From the IMG/VR virus record IMGVR_UViG_3300028453_000031: a stretch of DNA of 18,658 bases. One strand, written 5' to 3'. Positions within the stretch are counted from its first letter, which is position 1; every line of letters starts with the position of its first letter. The stretch comes from a virus (Duplodnaviria; Heunggongvirae; Uroviricota; Caudoviricetes). Made by a program: the position numbers and the translations under genes. Shown piece after piece: positions 11,693 through 18,232 of this stretch. A model generated the notes under the pieces. That model had not been told where the DNA came from. It saw only the letters and a list, made by a program, of their open reading frames with translations, and did not search any database.

Positions 11693-12193
11693 ATGATTAA
11701 TCGTACTAAACTGGAGCACATCCTCGAATATGCCAGGCAGCAGAGGCATATTGGTCAGCATTGTAAAATTCCAGCAGGAGATATGGTTGAAATCGTGGAG
11801 ATTGCCATGTGTAAGACTGGTAACTCTCAGGTAATTCCAGATGAGGTGCTGTCAGCAATTATGAAGGTAGTCAGGATTCGTACCGACTTTGCCGATTTTG
11901 ACGGTGACAGGCGAGGTATCGGTGATTGTCTGGATGAGTCTGAGCAAGAGCTTATCGTTACCATTAACAAATATGCCAGTCAGTTGGTAGTGGAACCGGT
12001 AGTACCTGATGAAGAACGGGAACAGACAGTCACGCCGCCAACACCTGGTAACCAGATTAACGAATTAACCATGTTGGTTAAGCGATTAGCCAGTTCGCTA
12101 AAAAGCGTCAATAAATCAAGCAAGCTACCTGATAAAGCGATGGAATATCTGAAGCAGAACGGACTGGTTGGTGTGGAGGATATTTTACGATGA
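11693..12193 (+). CDS. Hypothetical protein
   Basis: GGAG-rich Shine-Dalgarno before ATG 11693; 166-aa ORF; stop overlaps the next small ORF start (ATGA). Confidence 0.65.
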   Translation: MINRTKLEHILEYARQQRHIGQHCKIPAGDMVEIVEIAMCKTGNSQVIPDEVLSAIMKVVRIRTDFADFDGDRRGIGDCLDESEQELIVTINKYASQLVVEPVVPDEEREQTVTPPTPGNQINELTMLVKRLASSLKSVNKSSKLPDKAMEYLKQNGLVGVEDILR

Positions 12194-12273
12194 CCTGGCC
12201 TGAAGCATTTGCAATTGTAGGCGTTGCTATGGCTATCGCTTTTTTAGTATATGTTATTTGTCGGTGGGGGTAA
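12190..12273 (+). CDS. Small hydrophobic peptide (27 aa), single predicted TM helix
   Basis: MTWPEAFAIVGVAMAIAFLVYVICRWG; ATG overlaps the upstream stop (ATGA coupling). Confidence 0.4.
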   Translation: MTWPEAFAIVGVAMAIAFLVYVICRWG

Positions 12274-12307: not shown

Positions 12308-12412
12308 ATGTCGGATGATATTTCACTGGCAATGGAAGGCGCTCTGGCTGTTATTGCTGTTGTTATTGTTTACTGCCTGGTTGTGTTTTTGATGGATCGG
12401 CTGGGGAACTGA
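12308..12412 (+). CDS. Small hydrophobic peptide (34 aa), single predicted TM helix
   Basis: MSDDISLAMEGALAVIAVVIVYCLVVFLMDRLGN; strong AAGGAGGG Shine-Dalgarno at 12297-12304. Confidence 0.45.
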   Translation: MSDDISLAMEGALAVIAVVIVYCLVVFLMDRLGN

Positions 12413-12422
12413 ATTCATTGCG

Positions 12423-12656
12423 ATATGGGAATTCCCATATTGGGCAAAAACGGTTTGCTGTAAAGCGAGAGTTAAGTAGAATTGCTGCGGGTGCTTGAGG
12501 CTGTCTGCCTCGGGCATGCCGCCGTAAGGCAGACAGAGAAAAGCCCCAGTTAACATAACGCGTCCTGCAAGACGCTTAACATTAATCTGAGGCCCAATCT
12601 ATGTCTCACAAATGTAGGTTAGCCTCTTACGTGCCGAAGGCAAGGAGAAGCAGGCT
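12423..12656 (+). promoter_or_regulatory. hok mRNA leader region with strong secondary structure; expected location of the antisense (sok-like) RNA
   Basis: 18-bp perfect palindrome ATATGGGAATTCCCATAT (12423-12440); 10-bp perfect stem CTGTCTGCCT / AGGCAGACAG (12501-12510 and 12527-12536); short leader ORF 12601-12660 ending in ATGA at the hok start. Confidence 0.45.
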
Positions 12657-12812
12657 ATGAAGCAGCAAAAGGCGACGTTAATCGCCCTGATCGTCATCTG
12701 TTTAACCGTCATAGTGACGGCACTGGTAACGAGGAAAGACCTCTGCGAGGTACGAATCCGAACCGGCCAGACGGAGGTCGCTGTTTTCACAGTCTACGAA
12801 CCTGAGGAGTAA
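12657..12812 (+). CDS. hok: Hok/Gef family type I toxin
   Basis: 51-aa product MKQQKATLIALIVICLTVIVTALVTRKDLCEVRIRTGQTEVAVFTVYEPEE matches the Hok family pattern (TM helix then TRK.LCE.R.R.G..EVA....YE). AAGGAG 9 nt upstream. Confidence 0.85.
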   Translation: MKQQKATLIALIVICLTVIVTALVTRKDLCEVRIRTGQTEVAVFTVYEPEE

Positions 12813-12878
12813 GAGTGACCTGGGCGGGGTACTGATCCCATCCCCGCCCACCTCTGATGTGTCAGGCATCCTCAATGC

Positions 12879-12902
12879 ACCCGCACTTAACCCGCTTCGG
12901 CG
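12879..12902 (+). terminator. Rho-independent terminator after hok
   Basis: CCCGC-TTCG-GCGGG hairpin followed by TTTGTTTTTT. A further GGGCGGGG...CCCCGCCC inverted repeat lies at 12821-12848. Confidence 0.6.
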
Positions 12903-12986
12903 GGGTTTGTTTTTTCCTGGCATTCTGGTTTACAATTCGCACGTCAGCCTGAACAACTGGCACCTGCTGCGTCACCGGAGATCCCG

Positions 12987-17043: not shown

Positions 17044-17119
17044 GGCCCTTTAGCTCAGTGGTGAGAGCGAGCGACTCATAATCGCCAGGTCGCTGGTTCA
17101 AATCCAGCAAGGGCCACCA
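17044..17119 (+). tRNA. ileZ: tRNA-Ile (anticodon CAU, lysidine type), ileX/ileZ-like
   Basis: 76 nt, 7-bp acceptor stem GGCCCTT/AAGGGCC, anticodon loop CTCATAA, T-loop TTCAAAT, 3' CCA. Near-identical to E. coli tRNA-Ile2 as I recall it. Confidence 0.85.
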
Positions 17120-17128
17120 TATCACATA

Positions 17129-17205
17129 CCGCCATTAGCTCATCGGGATAGAGCGCCAGCCTTCGAAGCTGGCTGCGCGGGGTTCGAGTCCTCGATGGCG
17201 GTCCA
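17129..17205 (+). tRNA. tRNA-Arg (anticodon UCG)
   Basis: 77 nt, acceptor CCGCCAT/ATGGCGG, D-arm GCTC/GAGC, anticodon stem CCAGC/GCTGG with loop CTTCGAA, T-arm CGGGG-TTCGAGT-CCTCG, 3' CCA. Resembles the rare-codon Arg tRNA (argO-like) of Stx phages. Confidence 0.8.
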
Positions 17206-17942: not shown

Positions 17943-18202
17943 GATTTTGGGGCGCTGGAAAGATATTGTGCTGTGAAGTGTTAAATCCCTCACAATTCAG
18001 TAAGTTGACAGTTGCCTGTCAGACTGAGCATTTGTTAAAAAAATTTCGCATGGTGAATCCCCCTGTGCGGAGGGGCGACTGGTGAACGGTATGATCTCTT
18101 TGATGATCGTAAGCGAGAATACGCGGGTTTGGTGTCACCGGGCTGAACTCACCGGGAGGCACCCGGCACCATGCTCATGGTGATACAGAAATGCGGCTTC
18201 AG

Positions 18203-18228
18203 CCCCTCTCCGGAGGGGCTTTCTTATG
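18203..18228 (+). terminator. Rho-independent terminator (plus strand)
   Basis: GCCCCTC-TCCG-GAGGGGC perfect 7-bp stem followed by TTTCTTAT. Confidence 0.5.
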
Positions 18229-18232
18229 GACA

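Follow-up and report, generated by a model that had tools for sequence, protein, structure and literature searches.

The window, that is, the whole 18,658-nt stretch of viral DNA analysed here, carries a hok/mok/sok cassette in its early-right (nin-like) region, with replication genes on one side and the DUF968, RusA and Q genes on the other. The toxin gene hok (12657–12812, plus strand) codes for a product of 51 amino acids, which matches the Hok/Gef family of Pfam (HOK_GEF, PF01848) with an E-value of 9.7e-22 and a score of 76.8 bits (cut-off 22), as well as PHROG 251 ("MokW-like host killing") with an E-value of 4e-31. The Pfam match bears out the assignment of this ORF to the Hok family in the original prediction. 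NCBI annotates this same sequence as hokD in E. coli M18 and CI5; the annotated hokD of M18 has 99.8% identity to the locus, and the hokW/sokW locus of phage 933W, in which mokW, hokW and sokW are all annotated, has about 90%. Between 12404 and 12918 (hok locus to terminator T run) a 1-nt deletion alone separates the locus from those of M18 and CI5, although the whole prophages are 1.5% divergent. Of the 5426 complete E. coli genomes searched, 4725 have matches of the hokD/hokW type, the median being 2 copies per positive genome. That the locus is not novel had been recognised from the start, as hokW of 933W was known, and we agree given the annotation in that phage together with the Pfam, PHROG and Rfam matches: it is an already described, ordinary type I toxin-antitoxin cassette. 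Its upstream neighbour, which lies outside hok/sok, is a small hydrophobic ORF of 34 amino acids (MSDDISLAMEGALAVIAVVIVYCLVVFLMDRLGN; 12308–12412, plus strand) taken from the ORF list. The annotations of M18 and CI5 list it as a hypothetical protein, and it has no match in Pfam or PHROG. Many other prophages have kin of this ORF (ending in VLMDRLSD and a stop codon) directly 5' of hok, with no palindrome there.

The Rfam alignment proposed as a check of the original prediction returned a match of the leader to the hok/sok model (RF01794) at 108.9 bits (gathering score 59). This model represents the sense strand between the mRNA 5' end and the hok AUG, and its full length (1–157) aligned to 12489–12662 on the plus strand. 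At permissive thresholds it was the only Rfam model matching between 12300 and 13000. Three features agree on a start of the hok mRNA at about 12489, namely the beginning of the Rfam match, the position of the conserved –10 box and the 5' partner of the 3' end, and this gives a transcript of about 426 nt up to the terminator T run (12489–12914, plus strand). The inferred promoter (12454–12482, plus strand) was read from the sequence as a weak –35 box TTTGCT (12454–12459), a spacer of 17 nt and a –10 box TAGAAT (12477–12482). The –10 box, together with its immediate surroundings (GTTAAGTAGAAT), is kept in most of the distinct upstream sequences found amongst 72 viral relatives, with a few variants (for example GTTAGAAT or TACAAT), and the sequence farther upstream is mosaic. 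Neither this promoter nor that of Sok was called by a generic sigma-70 scan.

The predicted fold of the hok mRNA has an energy of –168.4 kcal/mol (z = –5.1 compared with shuffled sequences). Inverted-repeat search and folding identified a 5' element (tac, 12489–12500) and its partner, a 3' fold-back element complementary to the 5' end of the mRNA (fbi, 12870–12882), which are paired with each other in the predicted fold (mean unpaired probability 0.01). This pairing is further indicated by compensatory changes in relatives from Photorhabdus and Pantoea (GGGCGC/GCGCCC and GAGA/TCTC). The 5' element is followed by a conserved leader hairpin (12501–12536), the first helix of the Rfam model, with a perfect 10-bp stem between CTGTCTGCCT (12501–12510) and AGGCAGACAG (12527–12536); the copies in 933W and PPompW have a compensatory change from G-C to A-T here (CTATC..GATAG). 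Just 3' of the hok stop codon, a second hairpin (12821–12850) has a perfect 9-bp stem with arms at 12821–12829 and 12842–12850, and the relatives have a different sequence at the same site, from which a stem is still formed. The transcript ends with an intrinsic terminator (12891–12914) detected by the terminator scan, consisting of CCCGCTTCGGCGGG (hairpin at 12891–12904) and a T run. The 10-bp stem, the 3' inverted repeat, the terminator and the folded hok mRNA architecture, with its 3' fold-back element, are thus all present as the original prediction had described them.

By analogy with the rest of the family, the weak promoter would give rise to a stable mRNA, which would be translationally inert as long as its 5' end and 3' fold-back element are paired, and would be released by trimming of the 3' end. 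Translation of the mok leader ORF and, with it, of the membrane toxin Hok would then follow, unless the short and unstable Sok RNA (12609→12539) forms a duplex with the region of the mok start codon and ribosome-binding site, which would block translation and lead to decay. The predicted folds of the 3'-truncated mRNA did not clearly reproduce the activating refolding.

Sok is predicted as an antisense RNA of 71 nt (12539–12609, minus strand) by alignment with the annotated sokW of 933W (positions 1594–1664 of our record L001). It would have a single-stranded 5' tail of 14 nt covering the mok start codon and ending within 2 nt of the mok Shine-Dalgarno sequence (GAGG, 12590–12593), which itself lies 5' of the mok ATG (12601) and inside the hairpin-forming part of Sok. 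Its 3' portion is a long hairpin followed by UUUU, the fold energy is –27.1 kcal/mol (z = –4.75), and the terminator scan found a terminator-like site at 12575–12560 on the minus strand. A sok-like RNA had been anticipated on this strand at around 12560–12660, an interval which does overlap the one obtained by homology, though the generic promoter scan was blank there. The prediction of a minus-strand promoter, also suggested as a check, therefore came out negative with the generic sigma-70 scan, and the promoter was recognised by its homology to that of sokW alone. This putative promoter (12616–12643, minus strand) has the same hexamers as in 933W, with a –35 box TTGCCT (12643→12638) and a –10 box TAACCT (12621→12616) separated by 16 nt. 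When the Sok promoter was located with a simple pattern, a spacer of 17 nt was obtained in 36 of the other 53 distinct relatives in the alignment. Mutations in the –10 box of sokW have been shown to abolish the antitoxin activity (PMC8621323).

The mok leader ORF (12601–12660, plus strand) has 19 codons, and its stop codon TGA (12658–12660) overlaps the start codon of hok (ATGA). The short overlapping leader ORF of the original prediction is thus present, but this is not the usual arrangement in the clade, as mok is in frame with hok in 61 of the 72 viral relatives, where the distance between the two start codons is 57 nt instead of the 56 nt observed here. The ORF is short because of the deletion mentioned above, at 12637–12638, where alignments show AA in place of the AAA of relatives. 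The additional A is intact in the M18 and CI5 loci, which are otherwise identical, and in all 53 of the other distinct relatives, and the full length of the locus had no exact match in the 5426 E. coli genomes. Losing this base changes the frame of mok, shortens the spacer of the Sok promoter from 17 to 16 nt and turns a GAAA tetraloop into a GAA triloop. In this copy, mok is thereby no longer an N-terminal extension in frame with Hok, and has become a 19-codon ORF ending at ATGA.

A deletion found in one sequence could also mean that the cassette is a crippled or misassembled allele, the missing base being due to a sequencing mistake within an A run or to a recent mutation that inactivates the locus, in which case the coupled leader ORF would be meaningless. 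We regard this as possible, though doubtful. It is in line with the homopolymeric nature of the site, with the deletion being the sole difference from M18 and CI5 in prophages that have otherwise diverged, and with its absence from the other sequences examined, the E. coli genomes included. Against this, the same layout (56-nt spacing, 19-codon mok and ATGA) has been reached by other indels in a separate lineage and occurs in 10 of the 72 viral loci, and therefore appears to be viable. In addition, there are just 13 gap openings in the alignment with M18 over 17 kb, which is unlike an error-rich assembly, and sigma-70 promoters are able to work with a spacer of 16 nt. Even as a natural allele, the deletion could weaken the transcription of Sok or alter the coupling between mok and hok, and the allele may be misregulated or heading to inactivation.

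Amongst the named systems that are closest to the cassette is hokW/mokW/sokW of the Stx2 phage 933W and of the Sakai prophage Sp5. The parts come in the same order, and nucleotide identity between the –35 region and the fold-back element is about 90%; both Sok promoters have the same hexamers, and both Hok proteins have 51 amino acids, 46 of which are the same (5 positions differ). They differ in that mokW is in frame with hokW (70 amino acids), the Sok spacer is 17 nt and the hairpin after the stop codon has another sequence in 933W. The palindrome and KilA-N relic described below are also absent from it, the homology to the window beginning past the relic at AAAACGG. The location differs as well, the 933W locus being near the end of the record (about 58.4–58.8 kb of 61.7 kb), and that of the window between the replication and Q genes. 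For the 933W/Sp5 homologue, HokW has been shown to be toxic and its suppression to require the sokW promoter, with a dependence on RNase III and Hfq (PMC8621323). The toxin clade is also shared with hokD (relF) from the Qin prophage of E. coli K-12 and with the annotated hokD loci, which similarly lie upstream of DUF968 (ydfU) and Q genes. Some of the hokD copies, for example that of a laboratory-developed strain, match positions 244–515 of the query only, and so comprise the toxin ORF and 3' part with no leader, mok or sok, unlike the complete copy of the window; in K-12, the place of the hokD leader/mok/sok region is taken by relBE. With hok/sok of plasmid R1, the founder of the family, the locus shares a Hok/Gef toxin, mok, a predicted Sok covering the mok start, 5'–3' pairing and a terminator. 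By our count, the mok of R1 is in a frame 58 nt from hok, most of which it overlaps. The R1 system is located on a plasmid and the present copy in a prophage, for which post-segregational killing is thus not an obvious role. A blastn search against plasmids gave hokD-type copies only, R1 hok/sok being too diverged at the DNA level; the HokW protein is 44% identical to Hok from R1 (PMC8621323). Compared to the Rfam consensus, the predicted Sok of the window has an additional internal hairpin of 16 nt.

The most conspicuous inverted repeat of the region is a perfect 18-bp palindrome, ATATGGGAATTCCCATAT (12423–12440), found by inverted-repeat search. The original prediction had placed it in the leader of hok and considered it as part of the leader architecture. 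While the palindrome is real, its location in the leader is not, as it lies 49–66 bp upstream of the inferred start at about 12489, and upstream of the –35 region too. Nor does it belong to the hok architecture: it is present in 9 of the 72 Hok-anchored viral loci and missing from the other 63 as well as from 933W, falls outside the Rfam model, which leaves it unmatched even at permissive thresholds, and is best read as a gene relic (see below). In the relatives that carry one, the palindrome is perfect and 16–26 bp long. It occurs once in the window (0.01 copies being expected within 3 mismatches), where no second copy or half-site was found with up to 3 mismatches. An intrinsic terminator was considered at this position and rejected, since the T run is missing on both strands and the terminator scan was silent.

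The sequence around the palindrome is similar to intact KilA-N-domain genes and to the corresponding part of sister hok loci, and we interpret it as the relic (pseudogene) of such a gene, about 40 nt long (12404–12445, minus strand) and reading LPN-MGIPIS-Q*-IQFP, where the asterisk is a stop codon two codons after MGIPIS. The 16-nt core of the palindrome has exactly the sequence of the (D)MGIPI(S) codons of intact KilA-N genes, and 16–22 nt correspond to the DMGIPIS codons. Together with about 25 nt on one side, the palindrome matches the S-x-D-M-G-I-P-I-S-E-L-I-Q stretch of phage KilA-N genes (PF04383, including those that combine KilA-N with BstA-C). The 25 flanking nucleotides share 13 identities with the KilA-N gene L097 (coding for a 257-aa protein) in the window, and 19–22 in the sister loci of the L024, L088 and L206 types. 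In the sister hok loci, the relic reads SPDMGIPISE*IQ, SPDMGIPISRLTQSVKA or SPDMGIPISGLI*PVK, the retained flank of the KilA-N gene being broken by stop codons, and in some prophages an intact, divergently oriented KilA-N gene is found about 350 nt upstream of hok. Unlike those genes, the window holds a fragment interrupted by a stop codon, with no ORF and no domain; indeed, the KilA-N domain profile had no hit when run on the window's ORFs in all six frames. The low flank identity in the window itself (13 of 25) and the weak tblastn E-values for the relics (0.14–2.4) speak against this reading. Considering all of the above, it is likely that 12454–12914 is a hokD/hokW-type hok/mok/sok cassette of an E. 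coli lambdoid prophage and that the palindrome outside of it is a KilA-N relic. The palindrome would then be the core of a KilA-N remnant stranded at a mosaic joint just 5' of the hok promoter.

One observation is unexpected for a purely decaying relic: across 133 loci sampled by their flanks, 1 site varies within the 16-nt core, compared to 6 of the 11 adjacent positions. This, along with the perfect palindromy of the element (18 bp here and 16–26 bp in relatives), its position 14 bp upstream of the –35 box and the fold of about –16.5 kcal/mol obtained for the palindrome and its flanks as RNA, is what could be expected of a working cis element. Such an element might be the operator of a DNA-binding protein that acts as a dimer, with its centre near –57 of the hok promoter, or an insulating or processing RNA hairpin acting on read-through transcripts of the early-right operon before hok. 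However, the 63 palindrome-free loci of the same hok clade have several unrelated sequences upstream, the palindrome of the sister locus L206 has decayed (4 of the 16 bases are changed), and the window has neither a second copy or half-site nor a T run for termination. We also know of no regulator of hok promoters, and consider a working cis element to be improbable.

Intact KilA-N genes have been found to keep the palindrome through compensatory substitutions, some of which are non-synonymous. It is located at about codons 58–65 of canonical KilA-N genes. In 30 distinct gene sequences, 90.3% of the cells (pair positions by sequence) are paired and 9 of the 10 pairs have changed on both sides. 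G-U pairs are found in 2 of the 300 cells, which points to DNA rather than RNA. Some of the palindrome-bearing genes code for a BstA-type C-terminal domain. A search of the available literature for a palindrome inside KilA-N genes returned no description of one.

The palindrome next to hok might be an orphan version of a cis element acting at the DNA level and carried within the coding sequence of a large KilA-N subfamily, ranging from enterobacterial prophages to low-GC contigs of 250–400 kb and contigs labelled as giant-virus MAGs, and could serve as a KilA-N recognition site, either as a decoy or as a regulatory input; we give this a small likelihood. A more specific proposal, that the site would have been kept to titrate or evade KilA-N proteins such as the BstA-like abortive-infection proteins of co-resident prophages, in analogy to the anti-BstA DNA element aba, seems quite unlikely to us. 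It could account for the conservation of the palindrome at the exact same codon position in intact genes, where the covariation is DNA-like and some members have the BstA-type domain, and for an orphan core more conserved than its flanks. BstA proteins are moreover known to be neutralised by a cognate DNA element within their own locus (PMC8585504). On the other hand, the published element (aba) has another sequence, which includes direct repeats of CCCGCC, and another place, where bstA begins, and the BstA of BTP1 is devoid of the motif. In addition, no KilA-N gene is present in the window or in 26 kb of the M18 prophage. Of 26 other, non-hok occurrences that were checked, a single one has a KilA-N gene nearby, and many may be chance hairpins. 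The preferred reading remains that of a relic.

Several related candidates were rejected. An operator model based on adjacency is unsupported, given the single non-hok orphan near a KilA-N gene and the absence of such a gene from the fetched flanks of all 55 hok-adjacent loci. The extended palindromy of occurrences that are associated neither with hok nor with KilA-N was discounted as a sign of function, as a palindromic query of 16 nt favours unrelated hairpins; we estimate that tens of chance palindrome hits are to be expected in a collection of this size. The palindrome is not an anti-BstA aba either. The resemblance to the aba of prophage BTP1 is in concept only (a short, DNA-acting element inside a KilA-N-like defence gene), the latter being 63 bp long with its direct repeats at the termini, and there is no similarity in sequence or position, nor does BTP1 BstA contain the MGIPI and GTW motifs. 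Roi of HK022, which reportedly binds a site within its own gene, was dropped as a precedent because it is not a KilA-N protein and the region has no palindrome with arms of at least 8 bp.

The significance of the hok finding itself is small, since such cassettes are widespread in E. coli and the 933W/Sp5 copy has been characterised. What is gained is a corrected list of parts for this copy, including the positions of Sok and its promoter, and a natural allele in which the loss of one base alters the reading frame of mok, a tetraloop of the leader and the spacing within the Sok promoter together, and for which M18 and CI5 provide the AAA counterpart for direct comparison. The analysis also calls for caution, as the conspicuous palindrome is probably a relic at a mosaic joint and not a regulatory feature of hok. 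The palindrome of the KilA-N genes, although a by-product of this analysis, may be more interesting than the hok finding. If the reading of an orphan element were true, it would suggest self-marking, autoregulation or an aba-like self-immunity of BstA-type defence proteins, and if the palindrome were a protein recognition site, it would bear on how KilA-N/BstA-type phage-defence proteins discriminate between self and non-self.

The window represents an E. coli prophage of the lambdoid (Rac/Qin-like) type, and aligns with 98.5% identity over 17 kb to the prophage inserted beside potC in strain M18. The plus-strand gene order runs from regulators and replication genes through several small ORFs to the hok region, followed by an 89-aa ORF, a DUF968/HNH protein, RusA, a Q-like antiterminator, a DNA methyltransferase and two tRNA genes, which places hok in the early-right, nin-like part, with transcription running the same way as in that operon. 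Two small hydrophobic ORFs of 27 aa (12190-12273) and 34 aa (12308-12412) lie immediately on the upstream side of hok; neither gave a family match, and their relatives in other prophages (..VYSICRWG*, ..VLMDRLSD*) stop right before the hok promoter. The two tRNA genes after the methyltransferase (17044-17205) are one with anticodon CAT and a tRNA-Arg (TCG); the M18 prophage differs here by several indels, and its two genes are annotated as tRNA-Ile and tRNA-Lys. Downstream of them, a full-length Rfam match to the STnc100 sRNA was found at 18019-18231 (172.4 bits, gathering score 47).

The 51-aa ORF at 12657-12812 belongs to the Hok family, as originally predicted (Pfam Hok/Gef, E=9.7e-22; PHROG 251, 'MokW-like host killing'), and the Rfam comparison proposed with that prediction returned RF01794 at 12489-12662, across the full model, with 108.9 bits and thus above the gathering score of 59. 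Despite its name, 'sok', RF01794 describes the sense strand of the hok leader. The 531 bases surrounding the locus, annotated as hokD, have matches in 4725 of the 5426 complete E. coli genomes (median per matching genome, two copies), and match 79 phage records as well. Among these is the Stx2 phage 933W, where mokW, hokW and sokW are all annotated at the homologous locus. In the homologous hokW-sokW system of Sakai prophage 5, HokW is toxic, its suppression requires the sokW promoter, and the system is RNase III- and Hfq-dependent (PMC8621323). The locus is securely assigned as hok/mok/sok, an already known system; the original statement that the locus is not novel holds, given hokD in E. coli genomes and the characterised hokW/sokW. 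All the sequence features first described (palindrome, 10-bp stem, 51-aa ORF, short overlapping ORF, 3' inverted repeat and terminator) are present.

The hok transcript probably starts at about 12489, since the Rfam model begins there, conservation in 72 relatives begins at GTTAAGTAGAAT, upstream of which their sequence is mosaic, and the first 12 bases pair with 12870-12882. Homology and direct reading give a -10 box TAGAAT (12477-12482) and a weak -35 box TTTGCT (12454-12459) on the plus strand. For those 12 bases, the partition function of the resulting 426-nt RNA gives a mean unpaired probability of 0.01, the whole molecule folds with z=-5.1 relative to shuffles, and Photorhabdus and Pantoea relatives show compensatory changes in the end-pairing (GGGUGC/GCACCC to GGGCGC/GCGCCC; GAGG/CCUC to GAGA/UCUC). 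In the copies of 933W and PPompW, a G-C pair of the perfect 10-bp 5' stem (12501-12510 with 12527-12536) is replaced by A-U, a compensatory change. The hok stop codon is followed by a 9-bp inverted repeat (12821-12850), and a terminator hairpin (12891-12904) by a T run.

The short leader ORF, mok, extends from the ATG at 12601 to the TGA at 12658-12660, its stop overlapping the hok ATG. The overlapping arrangement first described is present, but is a private variant of the window that arises through a 1-nt deletion. Over 12404-12918, the window differs by a single base (GCCGAAGG instead of GCCGAAAGG; AAA to AA at 12637-12638) from E. coli strains M18 and CI5, whose annotated hokD loci are otherwise identical; past the terminator T run, the sole other difference is one substitution in CI5. 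The extra A is present in 53 of 53 other distinct aligned relatives, and no complete E. coli genome contains a full-length exact match to 12606-12670. The deletion changes the mok ATG-hok ATG distance from 57 nt, in frame, to 56 nt, giving a mok of 19 codons with an ATGA overlap, while in 933W the in-frame arrangement yields an annotated 70-aa MokW-type product. It also turns the GAAA tetraloop of the leader into a GAA triloop and leaves the predicted Sok promoter with a spacer of 16 instead of 17 nt. It is either a real allele or a sequencing error. Among the loci compared (L172-L251 and L005-L171), the hokD/hokW clade has the 57-nt, in-frame configuration in 61 of 72 viral loci and the 56-nt one in 10, where the same 19 codons and ATGA were reached by different indels in another lineage. 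A 58-nt distance, in the other frame, is found in genome loci L127, L132 and L133, and appears to resemble the arrangement of plasmid R1. Since the three versions coexist, the mok frame is evidently flexible in this clade.

Carrying over the sokW annotation of 933W by alignment places a putative 71-nt Sok on the minus strand (12609 to 12539), complementary to the mok Shine-Dalgarno (GAGG, 12590-12593) and start codon. Its predicted fold (-27.1 kcal/mol, z=-4.75) leaves 14 nt free at the 5' end, followed by a long hairpin and UUUU. The tip of this hairpin is a 16-nt self-complementary insert, GCGTCCTGCAAGACGC (12560-12575), extra relative to the Rfam consensus and PPompW-type copies and present in 933W with one base changed. 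The putative minus-strand Sok promoter consists of TTGCCT (12643 to 12638), a 16-nt spacer and TAACCT (12621 to 12616), both hexamers being the same in 933W sokW. A generic sigma-70 scan called neither the hok nor the Sok promoter because their -10 boxes match poorly, so that the promoters are assigned from homology and from the sokW promoter mutant described in the literature.

The 18-bp perfect palindrome ATATGGGAATTCCCATAT (12423-12440) occurs once in the window, against 0.01 expected within three mismatches. Its emphasis as a leader feature in the original prediction is unsupported: it lies outside the leader, 49-66 bp upstream of the inferred hok start, and only 9 of the 72 relatives have it, 63 lacking it, with one further locus holding a decayed version. 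These viral contigs were fetched via the Hok protein, hence the sample is unbiased for the palindrome. Phage 933W is without it, its homology to the window starting just past it. Scanning viral contigs for the 16-nt core, the central part of the palindrome, gave 120 loci, of which 55 are hok-adjacent, at least 29 fall within intact ORFs and the rest are miscellaneous. The intact ORFs encode KilA-N-domain proteins (Pfam E=1e-20 to 1e-27), with the core encoding (D)MGIPI(S); in some prophages, a gene of this kind that has a BstA-type C-terminal domain is located about 350 nt upstream of hok, in divergent orientation. Beside hok, the minus strand reads SPDMGIPISE*IQ, SPDMGIPISRLTQSVKA or SPDMGIPISGLI*PVK in sister loci and LPNMGIPISQ*IQFP in the window. 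The 25 nt flanking the palindrome on its far side from hok agree with the intact gene at 19-22 positions in three sister types and at 13 in the window, which contains no KilA-N ORF. The simplest reading would make the palindrome part of a KilA-N pseudogene remnant, about 40 nt long, at a mosaic joint. Among 133 loci found through exact flanks and not through the core, 1 core position varies, compared with 6 of the 11 positions immediately surrounding it; this hints at constraint, a reservation against the relic reading, and because of it a functional palindrome beside hok is kept as a minor rival.

An unrelated lambdoid contig has a further KilA-N relic, about 45 nt long (DMGIPISD*IQRF, L030 7069-7084), between its cro-like and cII-like genes; it retains the same sub-fragment as the hok-adjacent relics and agrees with the intact gene of contig L097 at 19 of 25 flank nt. 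The only non-coding core copy found adjoining a KilA-N gene is a 26-bp perfect palindrome (L102 5873-5888). It lies about 135-190 nt upstream of the intact gene, according to which start codon is taken, and the segment inside that gene is a different one (LSVDTGIPVS).

Because KilA-N genes were collected by matching degenerate peptide patterns, codon choice did not bias the sample. Nearly all of the 33 distinct sequences carry, in the L-S-x-D-M-G-I-P-I-S-E-L segment, a palindrome with arms of 9-13 bp and a centre of 4 nt (L252-L331, codons ~55-67; also L097 2537-3310 on the minus strand, L019, L338, L339 and L335). Across 18 distinct [M/T]-G-[I/V]-P-[I/V] segments, Pro is always CCC, Gly only GGA or GGG, and the second Ile ATA in 17, the remaining segment having GTA (Val). 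Differences in the peptide come with joint changes of the two arms, as in SMGIPMD (GGTCCATGGGAATTCCCATGGACC), DVGIPTS (CCGATGTCGGAATTCCGACATCGG), ETRIRVS (CCGAAACGCGTATACGCGTTTCGG), ETGYPVS (GGAAACGGGATATCCCGTTTCC) and DTGIPVT (TACGGGAATTCCCGTA). Over 30 distinct sequences, 90.3% of cells pair, compared with 70% in shuffles and 32-48% with the partner slid, and both-side changes occur in 9 of 10 pairs (46 cells), with G-U in only 2 cells. With wobble pairs nearly missing, selection on DNA is favoured over selection on an RNA hairpin. On this comparative evidence, the palindrome is kept by compensatory, often amino-acid-changing, substitutions in a large subfamily. It is found in contigs of GC 0.22 to 0.66, including 250-400 kb contigs and those labelled giant-virus MAGs, and comparable palindromes occupy the same position in a Bacteroides phage, a cyanophage and, with another sequence, a Klebsiella phage; D3 orf11, HK544, a Nodularia phage and Mcat20 have none there. 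The published aba element of BstA was considered and rejected, as it is not the same element, and the searchable literature yielded no description of the internal palindrome. The hok finding itself is of low interest; the KilA-N palindrome is kept as a lead.
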